From Aplysia californica (taxonomy: Eukaryota): a DNA stretch of 64,000 nt. This document shows positions 2,674 to 63,987 of this stretch, one piece after another; position 1 is the first letter of the stretch; every line of letters begins with the position of its first letter. Made by a program: the position numbers and the translations under genes. Below the pieces are notes generated by a model. The model was not told the origin of the DNA and made no database searches. It saw only the letters and a list, made by a program, of their open reading frames with translations. The stretch is from positions 1,356,551 to 1,420,550 of the forward strand of contig NW_004797283.1 of NCBI RefSeq assembly GCF_000002075.1. Direction: 5' to 3'.

Positions 2674-2694
2674 CTCCAAATTATTTAAGCCGTT

Positions 2695-2700
2695 AATAAA
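2695..2700 (+). terminator. Candidate proximal polyadenylation signal of FECH
   Basis: AATAAA about 20 nt after the stop codon, followed by T-rich sequence. Confidence 0.4.
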
Positions 2701-5557
2701 TTCATATTCCCAGAGTTAATTATTTTATAAGATCAAACTCATCTGAATCTTGTCTTTTTCAAAATTTGTTATTTCAAATTAACTTTTCAAAATGGGAGCA
2801 AAGGAGAGAGAATGGTGTAAATTTTCCAGTAAAGAAGGCTTCTTGTCTTGCAGACATTTTAGGACCATTTTGAAACTCCACATTTTTGGACTGTTAAAAA
2901 TTTGTTATCGGAGGTGTGAATTTCATGTCGCCTAAACATGCGATGTCTTTAATGATAGCAAGACATGATTCTGTTTGCCAAAACTGCATTTTGCATTGTG
3001 TTATGGTCATGGGCAGGTTGTCTTTCTCTTTTCTTTTTGGAGAGAGAAAATAAATTCCTCCTGGTTCATACTAGTGAGTGAAGCAAAATGACTTCACATC
3101 ATATTAAGAATTATCCTAGGGGAGGTTTCCTATGTTTTGATACTGAAATTATGTTTGTGAACATAAAGATACTTTAACAGCATATTGAATTGTCTTCCTG
3201 GGAGAGACAGCCTCCCTATGATCAAAACAATACAATACTCATGTTATAACATAATCAGAAATTGTAGCTTAGAGCATGCTTTAGAAAGTGAGGTTCTTTT
3301 TTTTTTTTCTGGTGCTGTGCCTCTTACTTTTATAAAATTGGGTCTTCTGCTCTCTCTCTTTGCCTTTTCGTCTCACCTTTTCTTTATTCATATTTGAGCC
3401 ATTCTCAGAAGGTCTGCTTAATACGTTGCGACAATTTTTTGGAATACCATTAAATTTTAGTCTTTCCGACTTTTATTGCTGCAGTGTTTGGTAGGTGTTA
3501 AAAATAATTTTCAAGTTTAGAAAATAATTTGAAAGCAAGCACTGGTGAATTAATCAGTTGAGAGTTTAATGGGTTTCGTATCCATAACCATGCCTTTTAA
3601 AGACATCCACTTCAATAAGCAGTAAAAATATTACAACAAACACAGCCTTAAAAATATTTATGATTCTCATCGATATATATGGCATTAACTAAGGCGGGTT
3701 TACTATTCAATAGTATACAATTTTGAATCCTGTTTTCGTACAAATTTTCTATTTGCATTGTTAGTGATCTCTTACTACCCGTTACGCCATCAGGCGTTTA
3801 GGGCAGCAGCAAAGGATTGTTAGTAATGCATGGAGGAAAAGCAGATCTTCAAGGGTGCTCAGCTTTTGAGAATGGCTGGTATATTGTATTTTATGGTGAC
3901 TGGTGAAAATGAAGGCTTGATTTAATTAAGTCGCAAGGAAATTTTTTTATGTTATCCTGAATGTATGGGCTTTCAGTTACAGTCTAGCACGCACATAGTG
4001 AAATCGCCAGGACACGGAAATCTTATCATTTTGTATGAATTAAATACAAAGAATACATACCGGGTATATCTAGAAAAAATTAGGGACCTGAAAAACTGTT
4101 TGCTATTATATATATGTGCGTGTTTGCGATGTGAGTGTTAGACTGTAATTATCAGAGCAAATATGACAAAAGTAGGCAATGTACATTTTATATGTCTTCA
4201 TACTTGTATTTTGATACCCCATGCAATAGTTTTTAAGAAAGATATTTCTGGATTAAATGATTATTAATATTAAGCTATGTGAGTGGTTGGCGGGCACTCT
4301 ACTAATGTGGTTTGCTTCTTTTGTCTTAGTAAACATCTATCATCCTTATTTTTCCTCCTTTTTTACTTTGTATGCAACGTTACTCTTCAGTAACATCTCT
4401 AATCTTTGGCATTTATGCGATGTAGGCCTATTTGTATTGCAAGTGACATAAAACTCTTACTGAAGCTAAAACAAATAAGTGTATCCATTATGCTTTTCTA
4501 AATTTGAACGAAGAGTTTTGAGTCTCATCTAAAATGTTGGTTTATTCTGATCTCATTTATGGTATTGCAAGCTTCTGCATGAAACCAACAAAAATCTAAT
4601 AATGCATGAGGCTTGTATTTTAACTACTGATAATCCGTGTATTCTTGTGTTTGCATTCCCTCTATGGGATTTTAAAAGTTGATTCAGCATGAAGGAAAAC
4701 TGCTCAGATTGTTCAGTGGAAATGTTTTAGTACTCTATTGAAGGTAACATACACCTTTAAGTTATTTTAAGAAGGTTGAAGAATAACTTCCCTGTCAAAA
4801 TGTTTCTGCTTGTTTTTAATGAGGATAGCTGTCAAGGTTAAAAAATCTTAATGAACTTGAAAAATATTATGTTCTGTTTAAACTTGTTTAGCCCAGACTG
4901 TTTTGTACATTTTACTATTCAAGCATTCAGTTTGAATGAAACCACTGAAGGACAGTGTTGATTGTAAATGAAAATGTGTTCTTTCTTAATTTCTGTGTTT
5001 GGAAGCCAAGAATTCAATAAGCATATTAAGTGTACTTTCACAATATTGCTTTATTGTCCAACATAAAAAAGGTAAATGTTCACTGTTATATAATATGATT
5101 GTGAAGCAAGGCCTGCTTCTAGTTCTAGTACAAATTACTTCTGTGATAGTGATGGGAACATTTCATCTTTTCTTTTCATTTACTTTCAGAGGTTTTTGTT
5201 CGGTTATTGTAAATTTATTATTTAAAAAAATCCTGTCTATGATTTGGTCACCTCAAAAGAATAATAAACTATGCATGGTGGTATTGTGTTCATTTTAATT
5301 TTAATTGGTAGCCAATGAGTTTTCTTTTGTCAGGTCTCTGAGGATGAGTGTGCCTATGATTTAGGTTATACATTTTGTATTGCCTTTGGTGCTTTTGTGT
5401 GTCTGGTTGCTATTATGCATGGAAAGTATGAACACGAAAAGTTTGGAAAAAATTTTACGCTTCTTTTTACAGAAATTCAACTTGTAGTTACTTAGAAGAA
5501 TGCATTCTGTTTTGAACTATTGAACTGAAAATTGGAGTTTCTTTCTGTTTGCTGGTA

Positions 5558-6362
5558 CAGTGGAAACCTGATATAACAGGGATGGTGGGAGTAGAGAAAA
5601 TGTCCTGTTATATCCGATCCCTGTTAAATCAGAAATGCAAGGAAAGTAAACATTTGTGGACTAATCCAGCTGTACTTATTCATGGGTAGTTTCCTTGGCC
5701 ACAAGTACCCACGAACAGGGGTTTTGGCACCAACTTTCTCCTTGCCTCTTTAAATCACATCAGAAGAACTTGATCCACAGCAGCTGCATCGGGTAGTCCC
5801 ATCTTCTTTCGATCCAGAGCAAACTTTCCATTGGACGAGTATGCTGCCACTATCTTCTCTCTATCCTTGATAATGGTGTGAATCGACCCTTGTGGAACGT
5901 CGAACTGACGACAAATTTCTGCCAGTGGAGCTTGCTTTTTGTCAACAGTCTGGATCATTTTGTAGTTTTTTGTCAATTGAAAGGCATTTTCTCTTTCGTT
6001 TGACATCGTTGGTGACAGTAGACACAGTACGCGTTCGTGTTGCTAGGTTTTGGGCTAGATCGAGGTTTGCAGCACACCGCAACCCTCTCTCGCTTCACAC
6101 GCTGCGTGTGCTTGCAGAGGCATGGCTTGCAAGGACTTGCTCCATCCCTGCGTTACTCTCTCTCTCTCTCTCTCTCTTACTTTTTACACATTATTAACGA
6201 GCCTCTGTCCCTGCTATAACCGGTTGGGCTCCGACGAGGCCCTGTTATTGCCGATAACTTTTAATAGAGACAAAGAGTAGGAAAAATTGGGGATTTAAAA
6301 AATCCCTGTTATTATTACCGGATCCCTGTTATTACCGGGCCTGTTATATATGGTTTCCACTG
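5558..6362 (-). mobile_element. Tigger/pogo-like (Tc1-mariner superfamily) deletion derivative with a relic of the transposase N-terminal HTH
   Basis: TA|CAGTGGAAACC...GGTTTCCACTG|TA; frameshifted KRKRKCLSIDKKL / AEICRQFDVPQGSIHTIIKDREKI (CENP-B/psq-type HTH) at 5755-6006. Confidence 0.88.
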
Positions 6363-9309
6363 TACAAGTGTAATAATAGCGAAGTTTATGGTGTAGCAGT
6401 TGGGCGCTTCGCTGTCACACACGAGAGACACAGGTTCGATTATTGAGTGGGGAGAATTTTTATTAAGTATGTCATTTCTTTCTGCTGGGGTGTTGTGTCT
6501 CTCTTAGCCTAGATTGGCTCTGATAGTACTAGTGGTATTATCAACATTAATCATGTCTAGTATTAGTTTTCAGATTTTCCTATCATGGTGAGTCTATCAG
6601 TTTTTAATTTATTTGGCATCCTGGTTATAAGTTGTTGCATGATGATTATGATAGAATTAGAAAAGTATGATATTTTATTACATAATCAGATTCTACTGTA
6701 GTGCATGTGAAGTTTGCGTATTTTGTTTGAAGTGAATGGTTGTTTAGTTTTAGCAATGCAGTATTCTCCGGCTAGTAGCACGCAATTCAGGTGATAAGAA
6801 AAAGGTGCTCTCTTGCGAGCATGCTATTAACTTAAGTGAATTTCTAAGGGGAGTAATTTAGAGTAAGTATTCTGTTGGATTTCATTGATTGTTATGAACT
6901 ACCTCGCATCCTGTGGTGGGGGTTACATTATATTGAACTGAGCAGGCCCTGAGGTGTGAAGTTTTCCTACACTTACTGGTCACAGACAACGGTCATCTTC
7001 ATGATTACGGCGTAGCCCTCTCACACTCACACTGTCCACCCGCCACGCATGGTCTGGCACAGCTTTCCTCGTTGCACAATTCTGTGTCACACCATGTCCC
7101 TATGGTTTTTTTCGCAGGCAAAGCTGCAGATTTAACTAAGAAATGAGGGTGTATGGTGTTTGCTTCACTTTCATCAGTTATGGAATTTGTTATTTTATTG
7201 GCTGATCCATTTTTTACTCAAGCACTCGAATGAACATGCTATTAGTAGGCCTACAAGATGGAGTTGTCGATTTGGAAAGTGCACTTATGGGTAAAAATTA
7301 TATTAGAAAAATTCGGTTCCCATACTGCCAACATGCTTTTTAATTTTAAGGCAGATTGTGTTTTTACCCGGCGTGCTATTAGTCGGGAGACCACTTTACA
7401 ATGATAGTCATGTAATAATGGTTGTGGTTGTTGTCACCGCCGTTTTGAATTCAATTACATTTGAGGAATTATATTTTGACAGTGTTGCTTTTTTGTTTTT
7501 CAGTTGTTTTTTTTCCCATTACTATTCATCACTTGGAAGTGAATCAACAGTTTTGGCCATTTGCGTAGATTATAAGGTAGTGCTGTGACGGAAGGTTCCT
7601 TTTTTCTCCTCAACAATGGGTGGCCATCTTAGACAGGTTCGACTGTTAATATAGTCGTGTCCGACTCATAACTGTTTCCCCCAAATTAGGTTAGACACAT
7701 CTTTTGTCTGAACTGAGGTTATTCACAACTGTAACTGCAATTGGTGATACATAAAAAAAGTAAATGGAACACTACACAGAAAGTATAGCAGTTCTGGAAG
7801 ATGTAATACAGGGAAATTATGTCCCCCCCGCCCCCAAAGTGTTTTGACCTAATTTGACTGATACATAGTTTGAGTCTAACACTGATGGTATGCAGTGGAG
7901 TCCATTTAAATGGAAATCTAGGGGACCCCAAGATATTTTTCAGCTTAGAGAGGGTTGCTCAATTAGCGACAAAATAAGAGTTGTGAATGACATGCTTGTT
8001 CAAATTTTATTTTTTGAAAGTTTTTTTCTCATCTATCTCTTTTTTTAGTTGAATAAGTGCAATCTGATCTGCAGGCTGAATGGATTGTGATTTCTCTACG
8101 GAATTGTCAGCTTTCTTAATCTGCCGAACAGTCACACAGAATAAAGAGTAGATTAGCACACTATACTAGTAGTGCTACACACCATACTGTGCTCAGTGCT
8201 TCTCAAGATAGGTGAGAAAGTTCATTGCCAGTGATGTCATGAAACATGCCACGTATGGTCAGGTGCTCATTTGTAGAGCCTTTGTGTACTGCTGACAAAA
8301 GGCCATGACCAACCGAAGATCGCGCAGCACCCATACATTAGCTATCCTTGCTTCTCTAGGCCTGTACACAGTGTGTATATACAGCACAACACAGTTGATG
8401 TCTCTCTCTTGTCCACAATCAACACGTGTGGGTTCCCATGTTTCTCTAGTTATGTCGTCTTGTAAGAGAAGTGATGATGTGGGTTACGTGAGGGTTGCTA
8501 GTGAAGATTTGGTTGCTATCCCTTGAAATTCTTTTCTGTTTAGAAATGGGAGTATTTTGGCCAATTTATAGTTTTCTTACAATGACAAAGCAGGGAAAAA
8601 ATCAGGGATTTTTATATTGTTTCAGCTAATGTTTCAGCTGTAACAGTTGACGTTGGATTAACTATGTTCAGTTCAATAACAGAATCCACTGGCTATGCTC
8701 AACTCATTTCATAGTTGCAGCCTTAAAATTAAAAAAAGGTGAGATAAAAACTCATAGGAAAACAACGCTATATATCATCTGTATCATCTGCTGGCAACAC
8801 TATCCTTTCACTAGATGGCCAGTATTCTTTAAATGACCCATCTGTCTGCAAACTCTCTCAGCTTGCTTACTTACTATCCGTTTGGTGACCCCTCAGGTAT
8901 CGGATGCATACAACAGAACAGAGAAACATTTGACTTGCACTTGTACAATTTCAATTTTGTCCTTGAGCTGTACCGTACTCAAAGGTTCCCCTTACATTGG
9001 AATGTTGCAGAAACCAAAACAGTCTTTGTGGAAAGTTTATTATGTGGTCCTGTAGACGCCAGTCTTAAAATTCCATTAAAAAAATATATGAAGCCTTTCA
9101 GCACAACACAAAAAGAGAATAATCATAAAAGAAGCTCTTGATCTCTTTGCCAGACTGTTTTTCTCCATCAAGATTTTTCATTCCAATTGTAGACATAAGA
9201 AGAGAAAAAAATGCTATTGTTGATGACAAGTATTGTACTAATTTTATAATGCAGATGTTTGTTCTCCTGTAAAATATATTTCTGGATTCACAAACATGTA
9301 TTCCTTTAA

Positions 9310-10697: not shown

Positions 10698-13600
10698 CTG
10701 GAAAAGATGAAGAAAACAGTAAGTTATAATATATTATAGGGTGACCTTATTTAGGCCACATATGGCCCAAATAAGCTAAACCCCCCTCCTTTACCTTATT
10801 TAGGCCACAGGTGGCCTAAATAAGCTAAACCCCCCTCCCTTACCTTATTTAGGCCACGCCTGTGGCCTAAATAAGCTAAACCCCCCTCCCTTACCTTATT
10901 TAGGCCACACCTTTATACAAAGTCACAGAAATATTCCTTTTGTGCTTATTGAGGTACAGTGCAGGGTGATTTTACCTGCAAGGGTAATTGGACAAAATGG
11001 GTAGAATCTTTATTGCTAATGGTCATATTTAGACAAATCCTATATCATTGTCTTTTTTTTTCTTAACTGCTCATGGTTATTAAAGAGTAAGCCAACTAGG
11101 TAGTAATTTCGGATTCCTAATACTAATATTATGGGCATTCTTAAAATTTTAAAACTTGTTTTTAGCGCTTTTCTCAACGTAAAACGGATTCCGTAAAAAA
11201 GCAATGACCATATCTTTCTTTTTCAAAGTATTGTGCATATTATATTTGTGTGAAACTATATATTCTATGCTTTCATGTACATGAAAAAAGCTAATAAAGG
11301 CAAGCAAAATGTTCTTCAGAGACACAGATCTAGTAGTAGGCCCACTGAATTTTTTTTATAAACCGGGAAAGATGACCTGAAGATAACAAAATTATTTTAT
11401 GATCTTCACTTGCACTTGCAACTTTTTGGATAAATTATAGTCTACCTCATTGTCTTTTTTTTCCATCATTTTTCTTCACTATTCATGACAACTGGCATGT
11501 ATTGTTTTCAGTTATTATCAAGAAAGTGGATAGGCGGACTACGGGGTCTATCTAGCCAAAAGGATAGGTGGACCCCGGGGTCTACCTAACAAAATGCTAG
11601 GATTTAGGATGTGAACCCCGGAGTGAGCGTAGTGAAATAAGTAGTAGATCTAGGTTTAACTAAGGATCGGTGGACCCCGGGGTCAACATAGTGAAATAAG
11701 TAGATCTCAGTTTATTTTATAGTAGGACTGGCGGAGCCCGTGGTCAATGTAGTGAAATTATAAGTAGATATAGGTTTAATTAAGGATTGGTGGACCCCGG
11801 GGTCAATGTAGTGAAATCAGTAGATCTAGGTTTAATTAAGGATTGGTGGACCCTGGGGTCAATGTAGTGAAATAAGTACATGTAGATCTAGGTTTAATTT
11901 TAAGGATTGGTGGACCCTGGAGTCAACGTAGTGAAATAGGTAGGTTTAAGGTGGACCCCAGGGTCTACCTAACGAAATGCTAGTTAGGTTTTTAGAATAG
12001 GTGGAACCTGCGGGGTCACCGTAGTAAAATAAGTAGGTTTAATCTAGGTGTCCCGGGGGTCCACCAATCCTTAATTAAACCTTATTCCTCTACGGCTATG
12101 GTGACTCCGGGGTCCACCAATCCTTTTAAAATTAACCCTACTTATTTCACTACGCTGACCCCGGGGTCCACCAATCTTTAAAGAAACATACTTATTTCAC
12201 TACGGTGACCCTGGGGTCCACCTGTCCTAAAACCTAGTATTTCGCTAGGTAGACCCCGGGGTCCACCTTAAACCTGCTTATTTATCACTACGTTGACCCC
12301 GGGGTCCACCAATCCTTACTTAAACCAAACCTTATTTCACTACGGTGACTCCGGGGTTTACATCCTAAAACCTAGTATTTCGCTTTGCAGACCCCGGAGT
12401 CCACCTATCCTCTTCAGGACTAAACTATTATCAATTTGCAATTTTCATTGATTAGCATATTTTTTTTAAAATATTGAATCAGAGATTCGCTTTCTAAAAA
12501 GTCCACTGCTAATGCTATTCTTTTCAAAGAAAATGGCACAATTTGATTTTATGACATGTTGTAAAAAAAGAGTTTTAAAAATATCCCGAAAANNNNNNNN
12601 NNNNNNNNNNNNNNNNNNNNNNNNNNNNNNNNNNNNNNNNNNNNNNNNNNNNNNNNNNNNNNNNNNNNNNNNNNNNNNNNNNNNNNNNNNNNNNNNNNNN
12701 NNNNNNNNNNNNNNNNNNNNNNNNNNNNNNNNNNNNNNNNNNNNNNNNNNNNNNNNNNNNNNNNNNNNNNNNNNNNNAGACTGAGCAGAGGCTTACAATG
12801 TAAATTCTCTGCTCTACAAGTAGAGAAAATCTTAAGTTTGCGCAAAACAGATTTTAGAAAAAAAGTTGGATCTAATTATTCTAATAAAAGTAAAAGTGAT
12901 TGTTATGCTGAGATTTGTTATTATTAACTCTGGAAATACAGTTACTTGCTGAATCTAAAAGTAACTAGAACTGTGCAATTCGTTTTATTTCAATTCCAAA
13001 GCCCAAAGGCATAGCAATAATAAGTTAGATCTAGATCTAGCAGTTGTAGGCTGCTTCTAGCATAGGCCTGCTACTACTGATTCTAGACAGGGAATCTAGA
13101 TCTTGCTATCGCCTGCACTATTTAAGTCAAATATATGGTAAAATAAAAACAAAACTGAATTTTTTGTCAGTCAGTACATCCCAATTGCCATAGCCGCACG
13201 TATTAATAGTTGAATAATGCGATACCGAAGCAACACGTTATCACAGTGTGCAGGGGAGAGCGAGGTGCTCGGTCGATTCGGTGGTTCGGCTTTTGTAGAT
13301 CTATGCATTTTTTACGGAAAGCCCTATTACCTGGCCTATTACTAGATCTATTAGTGTTGTGAAAACTTCAACCTCTACAGCTCAGGCGTCAAAAGATGCT
13401 GGAAAATAATAATGCGTCCTGAAGTTTCATAATTTATTTTTATACAGCATAACACAGTACACAGCCAGTAGTTTTTATTTCACCGAGTTATAAAAATGGC
13501 CTTCGTATAAAAATTGCCTTGTTTTCAGAAGCAAATTTTAATAGTTCTAGTTCTACCGAATCGATTTTCAGGCGAATTCAACCATTTTGATGATCTTTGT

Positions 13601-14980
13601 TTTCCTTTTAAAAAGATGTAGATCTAGGCCTGTCGGATGTGGCAGTGTGATTAACACTGAGTTGTTTAGATCTAGATCTAGACCCATCAAAACACGAGGC
13701 TTCGTGGCCGATCACAAAAGTCTACGGGGCTTATCGAGGCCGATTCGCCCTGCTGCGAGCACGTTCACTAAACTGCCTATAGATAGAATCTACTACCAAA
13801 TATTCTCTACACGATCTTTGCTACTACTACTACTAGGCCTACTAGCCTACATGTACTACTACGAGACAGTAAGAGAGAGTGTCACTCAGACAAAGATAGT
13901 GTAACTTTGACTCAGCCACGTAGTGTACACACTTTTTATACCCCAAATTTAACCCGGAAGTCCATTCGGAGGATTTGACCTTTTCACTTGACCAAAGTGT
14001 GCCAAAATGGTAGCCTAGCTTTTGCCCCTCCATGAAGGAAAAATCTGGCCCTCATTCAAACCATTGGGATTGAGCAAAATTTTGCGTATTGTGCTTTGTT
14101 CTTTACAATATTCATTATGGTTATGATTTATAAGTTGTACACTGAGACAAAACCGTACTAAATGAGAAAGGTGCACCATTATGAAAGTGGAATGAACTCA
14201 GTTGCCTGAAAAGGGTAGTTTGAGCATGTGTGGCCTATATAAGCTAAACCCCCCTCCCTTACCTTATTTAGGCCACAGTCCACTGTGGCCTGAATAAGCT
14301 AAACCCCCCTCCCTTACCTTATTTAGGCCACAGTCCACTGTGGCCTAAATAAGCTAAACCCCCCTCCCTTACCTTATTTAGGCCATATGTGGCCTAAATA
14401 AGCACTCCCTATATTATAAGTGCTGGCAAGAACAAAAAAACCTTTTTGTTAATCAGCTGCATGAGAATTTAACAGGGGAAAGCACCACCTTTTTTTCTAT
14501 CAACCAAATTAGTTTTGTGGTGGAAAGCACTCACCAAAGTCACCAAAAATTAATCAGTCTAAATGGCCATACAAATGCTAATGAAGAAGGTCGAGGATAG
14601 TCCTGTGCATACGAATGTGGTGTAGCCGTTAGGTGCTTCTTTGTCAAAGACAAGAGACTCGAGTTTGATTCCCGAGTGGGGAGAATTTCTATTGGGTGTC
14701 TCGTTCTGTCTGCTGGGATATTTTATACCTCGCAGCCCAGGCTGGCCCTGATAGGCAGGGACAGCAGCCTGCCTCCAAAATGATATAAATTGTGTCAATG
14801 GAGACGTAAAAACACCTATTAAAAAAATATATTTACATAATTGTACTGGATCTGAACATCTAAATTTATTATGATTATACTATACGGCCCCGGAACTTCA
14901 GAATTCCAAAATTTTTCCTGGAACTTCATGTTTTGGCCAGTCACTATGTATGGTCGGACATGACCTGGAGATGTTGCCCT

Positions 14981-32190: not shown

Positions 32191-33490
32191 CAAGTAGGCC
32201 AAGAAAAGATCCTTGATCTGATCTAGATATTTAGATCATTAGACCGGAAACATGCTTGTTTGTCGCAGGCCTCGACTCTAGGCTAGATGTGGCCCACGGA
32301 AAAATGTCACAGGCCTTGACTGTGCCCTGCATTATGGATCCGAAGTTATCACTGACACTCTCAAAAAGAGTAAATTAATGATTGCTTGATTGTATGAATT
32401 GAATTATATTTTTCAATTGTTTTTAACGAAGGAACATTTATTGTTGAAATTTTACCACCAAGTAATTTAAATTTGTTTTGATTTGCATACAAAAAGGTAG
32501 AAATATTGAAGAACACTACAAGCTGAATTGACATTTTACAGAAGAACTAGAGAAATCTACCTCTCTATACCACCACCAATTTGAAGGTGGAGAATAAAAA
32601 ACAGTATTTTTTTTACTAATACACCCGTCTCATGTACACGTTTGATATACTTTTATTCCAGTAGTATTTTACAGGCTGAACACGAAGGTCTTCATTTTTG
32701 CCGCAAATCAATAGATCTATTATAATCTAGATCTAGATTCTACTATAATTCTAGATCTATATCTAGATCTAGTTTTATTGATGTTTGAAAATAGTAAATT
32801 TAACTCTATAAATGGGGGGTTTCAGGGGGGCACCTAAAAAGAATCTGGGGGGTTTCAGGGGGGCCCCCTGAATTTCACAATGATTTGATGTTTTGGCAAT
32901 TAGGATTGATATTTACTTGAAAACAATTGATTTGCAAGGGTTTTAGTGGCCATGCGTGTGTGTTCTACGGCAAAAATTGTGGTAGTTTATGCATCTATGT
33001 GTGGGTGCAAAAGAAAAAATGTACCTAAAAACGTAAGTTACAGTTACAACTACAGTGTTAAAGTGCTGTGGGTAGTCCGTGCTGTGATTACGACTGTCAT
33101 CAATTTGATACTCTCGTACGAAATTGTGACAAACTGGACTGGGCGTGTGACATGGCAAACAGTAACAGGGCCTGTCAATTATGTCAATAAACCAGTCGCT
33201 GAAATAGAAAAATTGCAAAGTATTTTAGCCTTGTGTGTTAGCCATTTAAAACAATGTGGCTTGTTCATAACTTACCTTGAAACTAATTGGGAACAGCGAT
33301 TGACGAAGTCCTCTCTTCACCTTCTCATTGTGGGGCGCAAGGCCAGATTCGGCTAGTCGGCTTGAAAGGAAACCGAAAGTAGCACCAGTCTTTGCCTCCT
33401 AGCCTAGCCTAGGGCCTAGCCAAGTCAGTGTTGCCAGCCGGGGCCTTTTAAAAATTGGGATTCTGTCTCGTGGATAAATTAGCAAGGAAT

Positions 33491-33524
33491 CACAGAATTC
33501 TACACTTAAGTGTAGAATTCTGTG
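33491..33524. repeat. Perfect 34-bp palindrome with 8-bp TSD (probable P-element excision footprint)
   Basis: CAAGGAAT|CACAGAATTCTACACTT AAGTGTAGAATTCTGTG|CAAGGAAT. Confidence 0.75.
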
Positions 33525-35552
33525 CAAGGAATTAATCTCTCGCCGTCATTCCACTTGCGATGCAGGTAGTGATTAGCCTACATGTAGCCTAGTCTATAGG
33601 CTAGTATTATTATATTATTATTATTGAGTCTAAAAACTTATCGACCTGATTTACAAAGAGCTGAAAAGCATAAAACAACATTATAAACATAATTATCAGT
33701 CTAAGTGCAGACAAAGATAAACAAAGTCATATATATATATAAGTCAACAAAGTGTCAGCAAAGATAGTACATCCTACGATCGTAGCCTAGGGTGTAGTAT
33801 CTTTGGTGTCAGTCTCGTGACTAGACATAGATATCTGTACTCTAGGCTAGGCCTATTGCAAGGAGGTGAGAAAGCCTAGCCCTTGGCCCATTGTCATTGA
33901 CCATTAGACAACAACAAAGGCAAAGGTGTTTACCTATATGACCCTCAATTTGCCCAGTTGTATTTGCTCAGTAGGGTAGGTCTAGGCCTAGGCAACTCAA
34001 GCTGCATTTCGTGATGTAGGCCTGCCCTAGGCTAGTCCAAAAAGTGAAGAAGGTGAATGGGAAAGCCCAAAGCCGATTATCTGTAGATCTAGATCTACCG
34101 TCTACCGAACAAAAATAGGCCTAGCGCTCTACTCACCCCCGCACTGTTCGCACCGATTATACACACACATAACCCCCCCCCCCTCCTAATGTTTCATGAA
34201 TTATCATATGAAATAAAAAGACAACAGAAACACTGCCAACTCTGGGCCAAAAGCATTGTCTCTAAATTGTAAAGGAAACCAAGTTCTCCTGAAAAGAAAG
34301 CTGAATTAAAGGAAATACGAAGAGACATCATTATGCGTCATCCTTGCTGCATTTTGAACTTGGAAGTCGTGCTTTGCTTAGAGATCTATCACCCCGCCTC
34401 TTCGTCTGCCCTCTTGTCTCGACTGAAGAGTCTGTGGACTCGGTGGACTGTGGGCTCCCCTCCCGCGTTTCGTTGAAATCGGCCAGGCAAGAATAGGCTA
34501 GGCCTAAGCTACTCATTCATTTCGTCATCAAAAGAAAGGCTTTGATTATTGCATTCTTAAAAGGGATGAAGGCAATAATAAAAATGCATTGTCGGTGCGT
34601 ATGGTGGTGGGGGTCGGAGTGGGCTATTCTTTTTCGCTTAGTCTGCGTTCGCCTTCGCGAGTGATGTAGGCCTATGCTTTGAATTCAAATCCTCGGCAGG
34701 GCTTTGGCCATTGTGTGACTACTTATCTGTTTGTGCATACACGCATGTGTGTGCGATAGTGTGTAAGTGTATGGTGTGTTCAACACTAAGTAAACATTTC
34801 GTGGGGTCCTGGCCTACATAATAAGCGTTCGCCCGCACATTTTGTTTCTTTGTGCAATTCTAAAAATAGTAGTGGGCCTCGCAGCAGCCCAGGTACACGC
34901 TGACTGACACACTCTTGCACGCACCGGGAGCGCCACCTCGCGCCGACGCACTTGCAAACGGATATGGTGGACGTGGTGGTGACGGATTCAGCGTACAATT
35001 TATTTTTGATGATATAAAGACACAATTATCGTTTGTGGTGCTGCTGATATCGGGTAAGTTTTTATCGTATCATCGCTTCTATTGTACAAAACATGCTCCC
35101 GTAACAGCCCTTGTGATTTAAATGGGATGAATGTCTGATTTAGAGAAATCGCTGTGCACCTTTTTCTTCCTTCCTTCTCTTCCTCTTTGCCTGCATGCCT
35201 GTTCGCTAGCTTGCTGCTCCGTCGGCCGTTCGGGGCGACGGCGGGGCGATGAACTCGTAGCCATTTCATTGAAAGTAATCGGAAGGACGTAGTCCATCGT
35301 TTAATTGGGCAACGTTTATCTGAAGGGAATTTTTATTGTTGCATTACTGTTTCCCTTGGTATGGGAGAGATATCGGGATTGGAAGCATGTAATAGTTGTT
35401 CTGTGACCGTTCTGTGACCTGTTTTTTCTTGAAGTTGAAGCACCCTTTTCAAAACGTATCGATATTAAATATATTGGCACAAATAGATCTTCTATGTTCG
35501 ATTTCTCCTCATCTCGGAAAGATAAAATTAAGTTGGCATTACTGGTTATAAT

Positions 35553-36271: not shown

Positions 36272-37626
36272 GGGAGTGTATACAGACCCGGTAACCGGGA
36301 ACAAAATCACAAAGTTTACAGACCCGGTAGGGGAGCTCTTTTGTGATTTCGGAAAGTTTCAGTGCCCACTTGGCTCAGGGCAGACCACAGAAAATAATTC
36401 TACACTTACTGTAGAATTCTATGGGGTAGAGCTAGGTCCTTCTAGATCTAGACAGACAGACATAAATCATTGATCTGGTTTCGAGGCTGGCCTAGATCTA
36501 GATCTAAATGAAGATTGCGGATGTCTTTTCGATGACATGAACGATCGTTTTTTCCTCCGTTTTGGAGTTGGGGGAATCACAATTTGAAGAAAAGAATAGT
36601 ACAGTAGTCTCCGCCTAAGAAGATCCCACCGCTTATGATCCCGGTTCGCTTAAGATCCCGTTGTTTTAGGAAAACAGAACTTTTACTATACAAAAGTCAC
36701 CCCTAAGATCCCGCTCTGATGGTCGACATTCGGCTAAGATCCCGCATTTCAGATCATAATTTGTTAAACAAAAACGCCGTCGGGCACGGCCGATCAACCA
36801 AGAGTGAAAAGTTGAGATCATTAAACTGTCCGTCGGGTCAAAGATAAGCCAGTATCGTGAATGTGATCACATACACGTTGTAAAACTCGATGAAGCGATA
36901 CATTCAATGTTTGCCCCCGACGGGATCACACCGGGGTGTGAACTGACCGACGCGTTTGTTTTCCCCGAACATCGCACTCACACCCGAGCTCTCCTCCTAA
37001 ACTTGCATCACTCGTTGGGTGCGTAGGGCCTACACGTTCGTTCCAGGCGGGATCACATCGAACCGTGAACTCTTCCTTGACCATTGCAGCAGTTGTCTCT
37101 ACTCCCGAATTTGCGAGATGGACTGAATTTTAATTGGTGTGTTCACAACGTAATGGTGTGTAACGACAAAGGCGGTTTTGTGGGGGGACTTGGTCAGAGA
37201 TGGAAAGCTATACATTTTCGACAGGTAAAGGGGAGGGGCAACTGGATAAGCCTAGATCTTGAGCCTCATGATAGGATAATAAGTGAAAATGGCACGCCTC
37301 ATCGCACTATGCACTGTGATAGGTCATCAAGGTTAACCACTCTTTGCTCACCATATGTCATAAACCCACCAAGCGGGCACGTCAGTTCATTGTAAAGTGG
37401 AGGGAGAACATTTTACCGATTGTGAGCCTTAACATGGGTCACCATAGATTCTTCCCTGGGTCCGTCGCTCTCTCTCTCTCTCTTTCTCTCTTTCTCTCTC
37501 TCACACACACACACATGCACTACCAGGTCTGGGCGCTGAAACTTTCCGAAATCACAAAAGAGTTCCCCTACCGGATCTGTATACTTTGTGACTTTGTTCC
37601 CGGTTACCGGGTCTGTATACACTTCG
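36272..37626. mobile_element. Mutator-like non-autonomous element with ~97-bp TIRs
   Basis: 36272-36368 is the near reverse complement of 37530-37626; perfect 9-bp TSD TAAAAGAAA (36263-36271, 37627-37635). Confidence 0.85.
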
Positions 37627-40977: not shown

Positions 40978-41829
40978 TATTACGCATTAAACCTGCAGAT
41001 TACCCCCTTAAAATTTAGGTGGTGCGTGGATGTTACTTATCAGCTGCACGCAGTTTCCGGTGACACCGGCTGGCTTCAGCAGAGAAGCCCCGCTCACATT
41101 CTGGTAGCTTGCATTTGCCGGTGTTGTTCCTTGAGTTTACCGCTGCCATGAGATTACCCCCGTCATTCTTTAACACTAGGGATCATGAATTGTCGGCCAT
41201 TTAAAAAAAATAAATTAATAATGATATCAAAATAACTTTAAAATTAATGGAAAGTCTTTCTCTACTTTCATAAAACTTGCTGGACTCTCATTCACCATAA
41301 AGTCACCATCCCCCTTACTTCCATGTCCCGTGAGCGTGGTTTTTCAACTCAGAATCTTGTTCGTACAGCACTCTGCAGTTCACTGACCACAAAGGCTGTA
41401 CATCAAACTGATCATTTGGCATGAAAGCAAGCATGAGACATTTTCATTTGATGAAAAGGAAGTGATCCAGGAGGCTTGAAAGTTTCACGATGGGAAAAAA
41501 ATGGAAAGACTGGAATGTGAACCCTGGGATAGCTCTGAAGAATAATGAATCAGTTTATTTTCTTTTTAAAAGTGTATTAGAGTTGGAATTGACTGCATTT
41601 TATTTCTCTCCTGGAACCCAACTTACCCTTCAAGTTAAATTTTAAGATTAATTGAAGTGACTTGTGGTTTCTTTAACAATATCTCTGTACTTGTAGCTTC
41701 TTTGCCTTAGTAAAAATTAAAGTTTGGGGTATTATATAAGTTTAAAGGGGGGGGGGTGATCCGTCCTTTCGTTTTAAAAAACTTGTGGCTTTTTCTCCTT
41801 TTCAGTTTCAGTGTGAACTGTCGACTGAT

Positions 41830-42486
41830 ATGGAAGGGCCAGGAGAAACAGTCACAGAAGAGACTGTGTCTGTGGAAGAGGAATCCCCTGAATCTGTAGA
41901 TGGAGATGGAAATGATGCACAATTGTCTCTAGATCCCAGTGCTAAAAACAGGTCAAAGAGAAAGCCATCAAAAACGCAAATCAAGCATATTGCCCCAAAG
42001 GATGAGAACTGTGACACTTCAAAGTACGGTACTCAAAATATGGAGGACCTGTTCAATGATGTAACGCAGGGTATTTATCCGGGAACAGGGTCAGATCTTT
42101 CAAACCAGGCTGTTTTGCCAGCGGGGATAAATCCTCAGCAACTGCCGACACCTGTGCAAGGTCCCATCCCTGGTGCCGGTGCCCCTCCTGCAACCCCAAC
42201 AACCCCGAGGAGACCCAGGCGGTCCTCGCAAATTTCTGGTGCTTCCCCTGGATCAGGCCGTTCGGTGTCCTCCAGGCCTCCTCCCAGTTACCCGTGTGGC
42301 ATATGTGGGAAGATATTCCGTGTCCCAAGTCGATACGACAGCCACATGCTAGGTCATAGTAAAGGCAAGCCATTTTGTTGCAACACGTGCGGAAAGATGT
42401 TTGCCTCCCAGCACAAGCTGGATCTGCACTTGCCTGTCCACAGCTGTGACCGCAGTGCTTCTTTCACTTGTGAAAGCTGTGGCAAG
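41830..42486 (+). CDS. C2H2 ZNF coding exon 1
   Basis: MEGPGETVTEE...YPCGICGKIFRVPSRYDSHMLGH...FTCESCGK; donor GTAAGA at 42487. Confidence 0.88.
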
Positions 42487-45400
42487 GTAAGATTTGCCTT
42501 TTTTTATTCTAAATAAATGTTTTTATGACTATTGTTACATCTGGTATTCGTCCTTTACGCGATAGTTCGATCATTCACTGTTTTTCTCATAACTTACGAA
42601 ATTGTTCTTAAAGATCGTTTTGCTTCTTTCTTTGGGTTTAAAAAAGCAATTTCAATCGAAGTTTAAAAGTTAAAATATATTTTTATTTTGTTTTCCTTCC
42701 CTTGTGGCAGTGGATAGTGGAGGGGATGTCCATTTTTCTTTCTCAAACATCTTTATCAATACTGGTTTGGGAGATTTAAAAAATTATAGTTTTTTTTTTT
42801 TTTTAAATTTAAGGTGTGCTTTACTTTAAATATAATTTTAATCTATTGCAGACTAATTTGATCAATTGGAAATTGACTTACTGTGGAACAATACATCTTA
42901 CAGCACATTCTCTGCCCATTAAAAAAAAATGATTTTCTTCCTGATTCTTTGTGTGTGTGCTTAATTTTGCCTTAGCATTTGAAGTGTTCTGAGATGACCA
43001 GTGGGCGGTGTGGCAAATTGAACAGGTATGAATGGTCACAAGGATAGACGGATAGATTTGATGGCAATAAAATAGTTGTTTTTACAAAGGAATTGTTGCT
43101 TTGTAAAATGGGATTGGAAGATAACATTTGTTCGGGTTCTGGTCTGGGAGATTGGCTATTGACCCTGGTTGTGTCAGAATTGAACTTTCTTCAGATGACT
43201 AGTTATTTGATCACTCTTTGATTGTCGATAAAAAGAAAAGCACCCCATTTTTCAAATGATTTATTTTATTTTCATTATTGCCGTTCAATGAAGTCTCTAT
43301 AGTTACCTTGTTTCTGTTCTGGTTTCACATGTTTTCTTAATGTTCTTAGGTGTGTGTCAACTGGCGTGCATACCTTTACCATTTGAAAGCAAAACATACT
43401 GAATCTGGAGGGAAAAAATTTGCTTGCAATGTAAGTAGATCCAATACCAATGGAGGGAAAAGATTTTCTTGCAATGTAAGTAATTGTTTGCTTTTATTTC
43501 TTTCCTTTTGTTTGGTTTTGTACTTTATTTACTATTTTAGTTTGCTCTTAAAAATATGTATTTAAGGCAACAGACAAAATGCGCAGACATATCTTTTTTA
43601 CAGTGAAGGATATTCATTCATTGAGACAGAATTTAATTTGTTTGTCTCTCTTGCTAGGTTTTGAAAGATCAGTCTCACATGTTACTTGTTGAACGTTACG
43701 ATTTCCAACAAATATTACAATGAGCTTGTGTTTTGTTAATTTTTGTTATGTTTTTAACAAAATTGGTACTGGGACTCTCAACCTTTTATAATTCAGTACT
43801 CATTTCTGAATAACTTCTTTTCTGCTCACCTTGTTCATTTCCCTTATAGATAGGGGAAGAATAAATTTAGTATTATATTATATATAGAATGGTGGTGTGA
43901 TTTTAGTCATTCTGCTTCTGCTTAACGGTCAAGTGGGCCGCAGCATTCTGGTTGAGAGACCCTGTCTGATAATTTTGCATCTAATGATCTAGTTTTAAAA
44001 ATCAGTTCACTAGCATTTGGTCATGGATGTAATTTTTGTCCATGACAACCTTTTAAGATAGCTGTGTTATTGAAGATTCTATTTCAAAGGTCATAAAGCT
44101 ATTTTTCTGCTTGTAAAGCTTGTATTTATTTAAACTAATGAGAGACAATTTTTCCACTTGTATTTGTTGTTATTCATTTTATGAAGTTGCATTGTTGACT
44201 GTATTATTGTTGCTGTTGTTGTTACTGTAAAATCCTCATTGACATGCTCAAAGATGCATCATCTCATTTTGCGCATGCATCACCTTCACTCATTCGAAGC
44301 CATTTTCTAGAATTCAGCCTTTCATTTCCGTACATTACTTTTGTAGTGTTAGAATCCAAGAAACTCTTCGCCTCTAAATTGTATAATTTTGGTTGAATTA
44401 GAATAAACTTACGGCTGGTGTGCAGCGAATCATAGGTCATTTGTTAATTTTAAAAGGAGGACTTGTTTCGTTTGCCAGACCATCTGATTGTTCTGAGAAA
44501 TGAGGCATTTTAGAAATGGGTGCAAAAAAATCAGGTCCATATGGGTTCAAACTTTTTTCTTCCGTGCCATTGACCAAGTTAGTAAGCAATTGTAGCACCA
44601 TTACTGGCTGTCTTCGTGGCCCATGGCAGATTTGACAGGCTTTTTTCGTGGGTTTTGGAGGTTTTTTTCTGCTATGCCAAGTGGACAATTGCTGCCTGCT
44701 GATTTCCCATTCATAGTACTTCATATTATGCTATCAACACCATTGATCCCGACCATACGCTTAGTTTTCATGCTGCTTTTGTGCACAGAATTTGATTTTG
44801 CTGTCATCTTCATGGTTAGTCCTGGCAAATGTAGATTTTTTTATTTTGTTAAAGACACAAGTCTGCAGATGGATGAACTCAAGTATGCCTTGCTTTTAAT
44901 ATTGCGGGTACTTCAAAATATATTTTAGTGGCTCTTGACTACGAAATTAACTGTTAGAGACATGTACATGTACCATTTTACCCCTGTCCTTGGAAATGTA
45001 CAGCAGTCAGTAAGAATATGCTTCAACAGTTGATGAACTGATGAACAGAAGCTGAAGTTATTAAGTGAGCAAATGAAAACAACATAAGTTTCCCAGAAGA
45101 AAGGGGATATGGTGTTATTCTTGACAATAGTGTTCAAAAGCTTGAACGATTTTTTTAAAAATGTGGGCTTTTTTAAGTTGCAGTTATTTCTCTCAAAGGA
45201 ACACAAATGTGTTGAGTCATCATAGTACTTTTCACAACTCCACCTATCCCTTATTTTAAATACCACAGCCAGTTAATCTTTGGTCTGTGTTGGTTTTAGG
45301 GTTGTTTTTTATTTTCAGTAAAAACTTGCATTCCCCTTGTTGCAAAGACGTTCATGGAGTTTCTGTGATGTAGAAATGAAAATAATGTGTTTAATTTTCA

Positions 45401-48172
45401 AATTGATTTTTAGAACTATTTTATTTATTTTTTAGATATGGTATCAGGGATTCCTCTATGGCTTTGGCTAACTTAATTTGAAAGTAAATTGTTGATGAGA
45501 GGCAACTTGATGTAAATGTCGTTCTTAAGTTTAACTTAAAAACCAGGAGACCAGGGTATTGAATGAGTGGTAATTTTTAATGGTGAAATGAGATGTATTT
45601 GCCTTCTTAATTAAGATGATTGAAATTTGAAATAATTTTTCAAGAAGTATTTGATATTCTCTGTCTCTTTGGCATCTAATAATAAAGATAAAAGTTGGTT
45701 TTTGAATTGAGCACTAAATTTGGATTTTACAGTAAAATGATGTGTTCTTTCTGCATATTTTTTTTTTTCTTTCACAAATTATATTGTGCTATTGTTTTGC
45801 TCTTTCAGCTTTGTGGTCGTCAGTTTCACACGGGCCAGAGACTCAGGAACCACATGGCAAGCCATGAAGTTGGCAAGAACCATTGTTGTCAGACCTGTGG
45901 TAAACTGTTTGAGAGCAAGAAGAAACTGGACACTCACATGCTGGTGCATAACCTGACCAGCAAGCACGACCAGCATCTCCAGTGCTCAGACTGTGGCAAG
46001 GAGTATACTGAGTGGATTGCCTTCAAACAGCATATGAAAACACATGGCGCAGAAGGCGTTCAGTATCCCTGTGGTCTGTGTGAAATGGTGTTTCCTACTC
46101 AATACGAGAAAGAAAAACACAAGAGAGTGCATAAGCAAGTTCAGTGTGAGTTCTGTGAAAGGTATTTCCGTTCGGCTTCGGTCTTGTCGGTTCACCTAAG
46201 GGTTCACACTGGGGAACGTCCGTATAAATGCGGACTCTGTGAGCGAGATTTTTCTCAGTCTTCTGTTCTCAAAGTCCACATGCGCACTCACCGAAAAGAG
46301 GGCAAGTATGAATGCAAAAGGTGCGGGAATGTGTACTTGGACGTTATGGAATTTTTCAAACATCACATGGGTCATCTAGAAGAGGGCAATCTTCAGTGTG
46401 AGGAGTGTGGAAAAGTGTTTGAGACAATCAATAACAAGAATCGCCATATGGCTGCACATAGGGACAGGGCTGGTCGTGTGTGTCAGGTATGTGGCAAAGA
46501 GTTTGGCAGAGTCTCTCACCTGGAGGCTCATATGCTGTGTCACTCTGACCAGCTACCTCTCTTGTGTAAAGTGTGTGGGAAAATGTTTCCATCTCAGGAA
46601 GTCCTGACTGCCCACTATGCCACACACATGTCTGCTGGGGAGAGCGTCTCCAATTCTGGCCTGCCTGCTTCCAAGGGTCCTCTCTTCTGTGGCCTCTGCG
46701 GCAAAATGTTCAAAGGACAGGTGTACCTGAACAATCACATGAAAAAGCATGAAAGAGAAGGCCTCAACGCTCGTGGTGGGGATGAAATTCCAGATGAAGA
46801 TCTGGTAGAAGTTGAGGGGGGTGAGTTTTCTTGCCTGGACTGTGGAAAAACATTTTCCAAAGAGCATCATCTGGCAGTTCACAAACGTGAGCATACAGGA
46901 GAGCGACCGCACACATGCATTTTGTGTGGTCAAAGCTTTATGTTGAGGAAAGAACTTCTGGATCACATTGGTGAGCACAAGCGCAATGGACTCATGATGT
47001 ACATGGGGAATCAAGGTGGTGCAACTGTAGCTGCAAACGCTGCTGCTGCCCCCACATCGGCTACTCAAAAGGTTGGCAATAACACAAAGACTCCCAATGC
47101 AACCTTTCATGAGAGTGATAGTGGCTCTGAAACAGAAACAGACAATGAAGAGTCCGAGGCAACAAAGGCTGCTGCTGCTGCTGCAACAGTACAAAATAAT
47201 AAGCAACGGTCTTCTCCAGCAGTAGTACCACAGCAAGCTATCACTCCATATAGAGAGAATGATTACCCACCTCCTCAGACCAATCAATATCCAGAAAAGA
47301 ACTATGTTATACCAGCAAAAAGTCAGTATGAAGAAAAACTGTACCCAAATGTTCGCAATGTTTTGTATGATGAAAAGAACTACCCTAGAAATATAAGTGC
47401 ACAGTACCTTGACAAGGACTATAATATTGATAGTCAGAACAATTATCAGGAGAAAAGTTTTTCTCGGAGCAGCCACGTGCCAGTTGTTGAAAAATCTTTT
47501 CCAAGCAATCACAGTACTGCGTACGTGGAGAAAGGATACTTGAACCCTCCCCCGCCGACATCTATCTCTGAGAAGAGGTACATAGAGAGTCCTGGCAGCT
47601 CTTACTCTGAGAAAGCTTATGTTGAAGCTCAAAAGCTCGCTTATGCCGAGGAGAGTCAAAGTCTATCCAGAAAGAATCACTCTCCGGTATCGATGAACGA
47701 AAGTCAAGTGTTACACTACAATATACCAAGGGGTTCCTATAATTCTCCCATTTCACCTCCATCTAGTCACATGCCATCCTCCAGTGGCAGCAGTAGTCAT
47801 TTACATGCAGGTTTACAGACTGAACCTTATGGAAGGCCAGACATACAAATTCCTTTAAATGACCGCATGCAACCAGCCATGCAGCTGTCGATGAAAGATA
47901 CCAGTGTCCATCCAAACATTCACATGATCCGACCAGAGCCTCATTTACCACCTAGTGTTCACCATGATTACAAAAATGATATGAGCCCATATGCTTTCCC
48001 ATACAATAAGGCATATATGCCCACAGCAATAAGCAATCTTCCTCACCGTAGCACTTTTCACACTGGCTTCCCAAGCACGCACGGCAGATTCACTACAGAT
48101 TCTCAGCTATCTGTAGCCAATTTCCAGCTTCTACCCCAAACTGCATTTCCTGAGAATTCCCATCAGACTTGA
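41830..48172 (+). CDS. Multi-C2H2 (Kruppel-type) zinc-finger protein; 16 fingers, 3 coding exons (41830-42486, 43350-43430 or -43475, 45809-48172)
   Basis: Fingers 3 and 4 are each split by a phase-0 GT-AG intron (CESCGK|VCVNWRAYLYHLKAKH; FACN|LCGRQFHTGQRLRNHMASH). TGERP linkers, acidic/Pro-rich N-terminus and low-complexity C-terminus. ATG at 41830 follows acceptor(s) at 41804-41805/41810-41811; an upstream coding exon cannot be excluded. Confidence 0.9.
43350..43430 (+). CDS. C2H2 ZNF coding exon 2 (alternative donor at 43476)
   Basis: ttcttag|GTG TGT GTC AAC...TTT GCT TGC AAT|gtaagt; completes finger 3 and starts finger 4. Confidence 0.87.
45809..48172 (+). CDS. C2H2 ZNF terminal coding exon
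   Basis: tctttcag|CTT TGT GGT; rest of finger 4 plus 12 further fingers, Ala/Ser/Tyr-rich tail, stop TGA. Confidence 0.92.
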   Translation, partial: LCGRQFHTGQRLRNHMASHEVGKNHCCQTCGKLFESKKKLDTHMLVHNLTSKHDQHLQCSDCGKEYTEWIAFKQHMKTHGAEGVQYPCGLCEMVFPTQYEKEKHKRVHKQVQCEFCERYFRSASVLSVHLRVHTGERPYKCGLCERDFSQSSVLKVHMRTHRKEGKYECKRCGNVYLDVMEFFKHHMGHLEEGNLQCEECGKVFETINNKNRHMAAHRDRAGRVCQVCGKEFGRVSHLEAHMLCHSDQLPLLCKVCGKMFPSQEVLTAHYATHMSAGESVSNSGLPASKGPLFCGLCGKMFKGQVYLNNHMKKHEREGLNARGGDEIPDEDLVEVEGGEFSCLDCGKTFSKEHHLAVHKREHTGERPHTCILCGQSFMLRKELLDHIGEHKRNGLMMYMGNQGGATVAANAAAAPTSATQKVGNNTKTPNATFHESDSGSETETDNEESEATKAAAAAATVQNNKQRSSPAVVPQQAITPYRENDYPPPQTNQYPEKNYVIPAKSQYEEKLYPNVRNVLYDEKNYPRNISAQYLDKDYNIDSQNNYQEKSFSRSSHVPVVEKSFPSNHSTAYVEKGYLNPPPPTSISEKRYIESPGSSYSEKAYVEAQKLAYAEESQSLSRKNHSPVSMNESQVLHYNIPRGSYNSPISPPSSHMPSSSGSSSHLHAGLQTEPYGRPDIQIPLNDRMQPAMQLSMKDTSVHPNIHMIRPEPHLPPSVHHDYKNDMSPYAFPYNKAYMPTAISNLPHRSTFHTGFPSTHGRFTTDSQLSVANFQLLPQTAFPENSHQT

Positions 48173-63500: not shown

Positions 63501-63639
63501 CAAGAAACCTACCATATGATGTGGCCTAAATAAGATAAGGGAGGGGGTTTAGCTTATTTGGGCCTCAGTGTGGCCTAAATAAGGTAAGGGAGGGGGGTTT
63601 AGCTTATTTAGGCCCAGTGTGACCTAAATAAGGTCACCC
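60533..63639 (-). mobile_element. Second, inverted copy of the 10739-14409 element (left end intact, right end not found)
   Basis: 60533-63165 is colinear with the reverse complement of ~10908-13690, including the palindromic array at 61692-62538; terminal array 63520-63639 ends GGTCACCC. Confidence 0.88.
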
Positions 63640-63987
63640 TAATATAATTTTGTTATTTTCTGGTCACCTTTCCAAGGACCTTAAATTGATTCTACATCAC
63701 ATGTCATGTACGATACGGCTGTGAAGGAAAATGGATGTGAAGAGTTTTAAAGAAATAATAATGTAACTTGTAAAGAAAACAATGCTTTACATTGGTTTAG
63801 TTATTTTGACTACATATGTGGCCTAAATATGGTAAGGGAGGGGGGTTTAGCTTATTTAGGCCACAGATGTGGCCTAAATAAGGTAAAGGAGGGGGGTTTA
63901 GCTTATTTAGGCCACCTGTGGCCCAAATAAGGTAAGGGAGGGGGGTTTAGCTTATTTAGGCCATATGTGGCCTAAATAAGGTCACCC
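63640..63987 (-). mobile_element. Left end of a third copy of the same family, abutting or interrupted by copy 2
   Basis: Array 63817-63987 ends GGTCACCC; 63640-63673 resembles internal sequence 62661-62694 and 11367-11400. Confidence 0.8.

Follow-up and report, generated by a model that had tools for sequence, protein, structure and literature searches.

A perfect 34-bp hairpin is very probably the end-joining scar of an excised P/THAP transposon, with a cut likely 18 bases inside the TIR

The hairpin at 33491-33524 of the window (the whole stretch of 64,000 nucleotides analysed here, G000:C13:1356551-1420550) is very probably the end-joining scar of an excised P/THAP transposon of the CACAGAATTC family, whose transposase likely cut 18 bases inside the TIR. 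That the hairpin is the scar of a P element, whatever the depth of the cut, we regard as highly probable. The excision reading is supported by the shared TIR, by a parent element of THAP/P type (L097), by the number of scars in the genome (927 Mb, 4,332 contigs) and by perfect 8-bp TSDs in 42/48 fetched 33/34-bp scars, the other six having one mismatch; parent, scar counts and TSDs thus support the preliminary description, which saw here a P/THAP-family element that had inserted and then excised.

In order, the window carries CAAGGAAT (33483-33490), CACAGAATTCTACACTT (33491-33507), AAGTGTAGAATTCTGTG (33508-33524) and again CAAGGAAT (33525-33532): a perfect 34-bp palindrome between two copies of CAAGGAAT, for which a repeat search of the site gave 17-nt arms, 100% complementary, with a spacer of 0 nt. 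A whole-window scan for perfect arms of at least 10 nt returned 33491-33524 as the sole non-simple-repeat hairpin with an exact 8-bp flanking direct repeat; the chance expectation per 64 kb is 8e-6 for the hairpin by itself and 2e-10 with its TSD. The features of the site and its surroundings are:

33483..33490, no strand: left 8-bp TSD copy, CAAGGAAT (read from the sequence and the hairpin scan)
33491..33508, plus strand: left arm, TIR bases 1-18 (17 in the split first proposed; sequence against family TIR)
33507..33524, minus strand: right arm, TIR bases 1-18 (sequence against family TIR)
33525..33532, no strand: right 8-bp TSD copy (read from the sequence and the hairpin scan)
36386..36423, no strand: second, decayed scar of the CACAGAATTC family, 2.9 kb from the main hairpin
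33276..33520, minus strand: stretch spanned by one contig of run X6 (contig placement)

The letters of the 17+17-bp perfect hairpin with its 8-bp TSD are confirmed as first described, and 17+17 is only one of the possible splits. The base at 33508 is A, which also matches base 18 of the family TIR, and the central TA (33507-33508) is common to both arms; the site would read identically if split as 17+17, 18+16 or 16+18, or as 18+18 overlapping by the 2 nt TA. The split of the 34-bp hairpin is therefore ambiguous because TIR base 18 is A and, because TIR bases 17-18 are TA, a 34-bp scar is uninformative on cut depth. The central TA would be the microhomology used in joining. The decayed scar at 36386-36423 consists of an 18-nt-type left arm with a small insertion, a C and a 14-nt right arm, between flanks (GGGCAGAC and GGGTAGAG) that are alike at 6/8 positions. 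The window also holds a tandem hairpin repeat, CTTATTTAGGCCAC...GTGGCCTAAATAAG, without TSDs (10795-10875, 14270-14402 and 63603-63980), which is probably part of another repeat family.

The hairpin arm corresponds to the outer bases of a TIR of 23 bp, CACAGAATTCTACACTTATAGAA. As a 17-mer it has 1,425 matches in the 927-Mb genome (711+714; 0 for a backwards control), 425 of which (214+211) extend to the 23-bp TIR. This TIR, which begins with CA as in the P superfamily, bounds non-coding elements of 1.2-4.1 kb, of which there are some 200 long non-autonomous copies; of the long copies fetched, 15/20 are flanked by a perfect 8-bp TSD. A genome search with the PF21789 profile gave 42 matches, and among 19 ten-kb stretches fetched around them one has both exact ends. 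This is L097 (G000:C986), 1748-6702, a 4,955-bp element in which an intron of 1,018 bp separates a short THAP exon from one of 855 codons; joined by a splice inferred from GT/AG and reading frame, the exons give a protein of 878 aa. The protein has the Pfam domains THAP, Tnp_P_element, TNP RNaseH_N, GTP-binding insertion and RNaseH_C, all above cut-off; its best PDB match is the Drosophila P transposase 6p5a, to which it is distantly alike (E 1e-27). Its MFDAM, VCDG and QDHLE align with FDEM, VSDL and QDIVE of the fly, so that the DDE triad is present; the catalytic triad of the fly transposase is D230, D303 and E531 (PMC7776569, in part). Judged from its sequence, L097 encodes a P-superfamily (THAP) transposase with a predicted GTP-binding domain.

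The terminal 250-300 bp or so of L097 and of the non-autonomous L034 are alike at 79-86%, and in 3/3 elements examined a 15-bp subterminal motif lies at position 44 at one end and 55 at the other; the putative motif recalls the unequal spacers (9 and 21 bp) between TIR and binding site in the fly P element (PMC7776569, in part). The L097 copy itself is without a TSD (4/8 mismatches). It was the only near-complete transposase-encoding copy found in a search for further autonomous copies, the other matches being a partial copy (98%) with the left end, a 90% fragment and two diverged relatives. A 22-bp hairpin with a perfect 8-bp TSD of its own lies within the element's left end (L097:6523-6544 and L238:3318); it is the old footprint of a related element that once sat inside the parent. 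The longer element with the same termini and a THAP/P transposase that had been predicted is thus found in L097; the parent is P-type and not hAT, and the arm lengths do have a peak, at 18, so none of the outcomes named beforehand as refuting was seen. A hAT-type footprint was also considered and rejected: the parent's domains are of P type, the palindrome is TIR-derived and the TSDs are intact. hAT footprints are not known to retain TIR sequence, and their palindromes derive from the flanks.

The exact 34-bp scar has 65 copies in the genome and the exact 33-bp scar, the commonest form, 251. Both 17-nt arms with 1-25 nt of filler between them occur at 60 sites, and a 17-nt arm followed by a base other than A gives 121 matches, which overlap the filler class. 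TSDs of 6, 7, 9 or 10 bp were seen in 0/48 fetched 33/34-bp scars; for the filler scars (46 of the 50 sites listed, four being lost to flank de-duplication or overlap) 45/46 have a TSD with no more than one mismatch. In the symmetrised target, TSD position 1 is preferably G (0.51) and the position three bases upstream preferably T (0.79). Hairpins of 30-46 bp with 8-bp TSDs are numerous in the genome, in line with the prediction of many at 30-38 bp; and empty sites with one TSD copy exist as paralogs, 28/131 scars lying in repeats whose other copies have a single target copy, although none was seen at the hairpin site itself in four sequencing runs. A figure of 2,227 hairpin sites was rejected as a scar count: it is inflated, about 29 of the 50 sites listed being a passive 42-48-bp variant with constant flanks. 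Most of the sites listed are a 46-bp repeat-borne variant: in L051-L065 (e.g. G000:C1:686695-686740), a filler-type scar of 46 bp, its TSD decayed, lies inside another high-copy repeat and was co-amplified with that repeat.

The scars have the traits of excision footprints, in that both TSDs are kept with outer TIR bases between them, and their junctions have the spectrum of end joining: microhomology joins, templated fillers and a sharp upper limit to arm length. There are 62 distinct junction types among the fetched scars, with fillers copied from the arms, and one repeat site has 33-, 34- and 36-bp scars in different copies. Two scars, of 46 and 48 bp, keep 32-34 nt of one end, reaching past the TIR, as aborted gap repair might leave. 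At one repeat site (L171, L219 and L236) the centre of a 36-bp scar occurs in opposite orientations, AG and CT, which suggests either separate repair events or a flip of the strands within the hairpin. At L195:1501 a 36-bp scar lies within a 33-bp scar, and its 8-bp TSD is scar sequence.

In flies, scars likewise keep both TSDs and outer TIR, with microhomology joins and templated fillers (PMC2895639 and PMC5466332, in part). Of the two strands, the fly transposase cuts one at its 3′ end and the other 17 bp into the TIR (PMC7776569, in part), and in the cited parts of PMC2895639 and PMC5466332 it is Pol theta that joins the donor tails, by microhomology, in apparent blunt joins and with templated insertions. 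Because the scars here share the anatomy of fly donor junctions, we infer the same end-joining route. By analogy, insertion of a P-superfamily element would have made the 8-bp TSD; the transposase would have made one cut flush with the 3′ end of each terminus and another N bases further in on the opposite strand, so that the donor kept two identical 3′ tails of N nt; and end joining of the polymerase-theta type would have annealed the tips of these tails, with fill-in and ligation to follow. At N = 18, tip base A18 could pair either with the partner's T17 (the TA overlap), to give the 34-bp scar, or with the partner's T16, to give the 33-bp scar; repeated priming would give the filler scars. 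Snap-back priming gained no support from stability, as folding of a 17- or 18-nt tail gave no stable structure.

Given a P scar, we consider a cut depth of N = 18 fairly likely and one of N = 17 possible but clearly less so; the junctions would bound the depth at 17 from below and 18 from above, and the statistics lean to 18. When tip-paired products were enumerated for N = 17 to 20, N = 18 predicted scars of 34 and 33 bp, which are the two dominant classes; N = 17 predicted tip-paired products of 30, 28, 23 and 22 bp, the 33- and 34-bp scars being then unpaired. The 36-bp product with central AT, which N = 19-20 would give, was absent from the 50 sites listed of the 60 filler sites. At 27 distinct filler junctions of at least 3 nt, A18 is present in 36/54 arms (background A 0.325, p 3e-7) and T19 in 6/36 of those A18 arms. 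The arm profile of the fetched scars (43 arms of 18, 27 of 17 and 6 of 19) is not our main test, since the loci came from searches favouring 17- and 18-nt arms. Base 18 of the fly TIR is A. At fly insertion junctions, where a 17-nt cut is proven, 35/63 arms of at least 16 nt reach 17, and A comes next after base 17 in 13/35 arms (our hand tallies from Tables 1-3 of PMC2895639, in part). Set against these partial fly data, which come from repair mutants with a different tail sequence, continuation to 18 given 17 differs here from the fly's 18 given 17 (Fisher p 0.009) and shows no significant difference from the fly's 17 given 16 (p 0.26).

Alternatively, the scar may be the same but the cut that of Drosophila, at 17 nt, with the 34-bp form a blunt 17+17 join and base 18 added by polymerase as templated or untemplated dA; this we think doubtful, though it accounts for several observations. 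Apparent blunt 17+17 joins do occur in flies (3/34 isolates in Table 1 of PMC5466332, in part), 18/54 filler arms stop at 17, and several one-armed scars end there too (L012, L026 and L261). The 121 matches with a base other than A at position 18 also fit a 17-nt cut, as does the 36-bp AG class, which needs no flap under N = 17, and the 30-bp 17+13 product with its T17:A14 pair makes up 11 of 100 matches listed. As for A18 itself, untemplated dA addition could supply it, and in 16/36 A18 arms, where the next base is G, templating is possible. Yet a 17-nt cut would leave both dominant products, 316 sites, without tip pairing, whereas blunt full-length joins in flies amount to at most about 9% (PMC5466332 and PMC2895639, in part). 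Moreover, 17 nt followed by A and C occurs 16 times (all 36 matches listed), against about twice for 17 nt followed by C, G or T and then C (100 of 121 listed); the 22-bp TT/AA product was seen 0 times in the first 100 matches of the 17-mer, against 18 exact 33-mers; and a sister family keeps C18. The exact 17-nt stagger that had been proposed as conserved is therefore not upheld: the 33-bp scar is the commonest (251 vs 65), filler arms peak at 18 and the sister family needs at least 18. The expected arm-length mode near 17 stands in so far as there is a peak near it, but in filler junctions the peak is at 18. What appears from these junctions to be conserved is a long stagger, of 17-19 nt, not demonstrably of 17.

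That the 33-36-bp hairpins are instead micro-MITEs, mobile units in their own right that the P transposase has multiplied, is very unlikely in our view. It would explain why there are 251 + 65 identical copies with fresh 8-bp TSDs in mostly unrelated flanks, and why a comparison of 47 full ends with 131 scars gave 0 true pairs of full element and scar at the same site (only two self-matches). It does not sit well with 62 junction types and fillers copied from the arms, nor with the finding of different scars at the same site or of a second family that has the same pattern with its own lengths; the hairpins lack the uniform interior and the cis sites for mobilisation that mark a MITE, including the subterminal 44/55 motif of the long copies, and a 17-18-nt staggered cut in a 34-bp unit would leave almost no duplex (from PMC7776569, in part). 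More improbable still is a collapse independent of transposase, in which the TIRs form a stem-loop in replication and the loop is deleted, or in which a microhomology deletion removes the interior. Though a few scars fit internal-repeat deletion (a 30-bp scar with a TAGAA overlap, L016, and the 46-/48-bp scars), collapse of a 23-bp stem predicts arms of about 23 or more, and the limit seen is 18; arms of at least 20 are only 7/36 even in a search selecting for them, and the 4-bp TATA overlap (bases 17-20), which should dominate, was found at none of the 50 sites listed of the 60.

A second P family in the same genome has elements of 5.0-5.2 kb with perfect 8-bp TSDs (L100:3099-8270, L101:3172-8269 and L112:1830-6862), the TIR CATAGACCTATAATTA[A/G]CCGAG and long transposase frames about 40% identical to P0001. 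Its 24 scars have a mode of 35 bp (9/24), and in 9/9 of the 35-bp scars TIR base C18 is at the centre, so that dA addition is excluded in this family. The four of these nine that come from elements with unequal ends all have C19 of one end paired with G17 of the other. The junctions would need a cut of at least 18 in the second family, and it was probably at 19. A third P family (L099:3129-8244 and L305) has an 11-bp TIR and unequal ends, and gave one scar, too few to draw on; its 38 bp retain 15-17 nt from one end and 21-23 nt from the other.

The CACAGAATTC family is like the P element of Drosophila melanogaster in its THAP-HTH-RNaseH-GTP-binding transposase, its CA...TG ends and 8-bp TSD, and in its internally deleted copies and unequally spaced internal motif (PMC7776569, in part). 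It differs in the TIR, 23 bp against 31 in the fly element, and in its scars, which centre on 33-34 bp whereas the commonest short-microhomology joins in the fly are of 30 and 32 bp (PMC2895639 and PMC5466332, in part); its cut was likely one base deeper than the fly's. The zebrafish Pdre2/THAP9, whose excision has been shown in cells (PMC10983969, in part), is similar in its 8-bp TSD and in having one full-length copy and many deleted ones (PMC10983969 and PMC7776569, in part), but differs in its 13-bp TIR and distant subterminal repeats (PMC10983969, in part). Invertebrate THAP9-like transposases (Elysia, Paramuricea, Nymphon and Ixodes) have the same Pfam architecture. In all, 203 of the scored candidates are related to the L097 protein at E <= 1e-50, the best identity being 43-47%, and none of the 120 listed belongs to an identical family.

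P footprints are already known from fly assays, where scars were induced at one laboratory locus; here there are hundreds of natural, retained scars. The cited parts of PMC10983969 and PMC7776569 state a 17-nt cut for no enzyme but that of the fly, those of PMC10983969 reporting excision with no mapped cut position, and we found in the open-access literature no account of genome-wide natural P scars or of cut depth outside flies. The present analysis contributes the transposase-encoding parent, exact scar counts and a statistical case for a family-specific cut depth. The long staggered cut is a hallmark of P transposition, and the scars indicate that a distant THAP9-type transposase in a non-fly animal also uses one; spliced genes and the size of the genome would make the host an animal other than Drosophila. 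We incline to the view that the depth of the stagger is family-specific (18 here and 19 in the sister family), and that germline scars reveal both this depth and a tip-pairing rule of Pol theta. With an intact-looking transposase frame and its ends available, a possible variation of stagger length between families can be tested directly; and the several hundred scars offer a natural record of germline end joining at one defined break.

Contigs from four runs (X1, X5, X6 and X8) were placed on 33000-34000 to seek an empty or full-length allele. The scar is present in X1 (the possible source), X6 and X8, and X5 has a hole at the site; the contigs of X6 and X8 pass from unique flank into the hairpin. 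No full-length element allele was seen at 33000-34000 in the four runs, and no 42-bp skip (an empty allele) was seen at the site, a weak negative in that contigs break within the hairpin. Because X6 and X8, samples besides the possible source, carry the hairpin, the scar at 33491-33524 is heritable and probably common, and the germline origin first suggested for it is borne out.

The X6 contig that covers 33276-33520 runs on past 33276 into an exon starting at 28606 (ATG at 28585); from this splice-like join the contig would be of RNA origin. Because the contig joins the two, the scar appears, on this placement, to lie within or next to a 5′ non-coding exon of a gene on the minus strand, a gene to which a ZZ-finger exon further along that strand may also belong. 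P elements of the fly favour promoters (PMC7776569, in part). The scar has no known function. Elsewhere in the window, on the plus strand, lie a ferrochelatase CDS in one uninterrupted frame (1360-2673; Pfam PF00762, E 2e-107) and the exons of a multi-C2H2 zinc-finger gene (41746-48172), whose motifs were read by eye.
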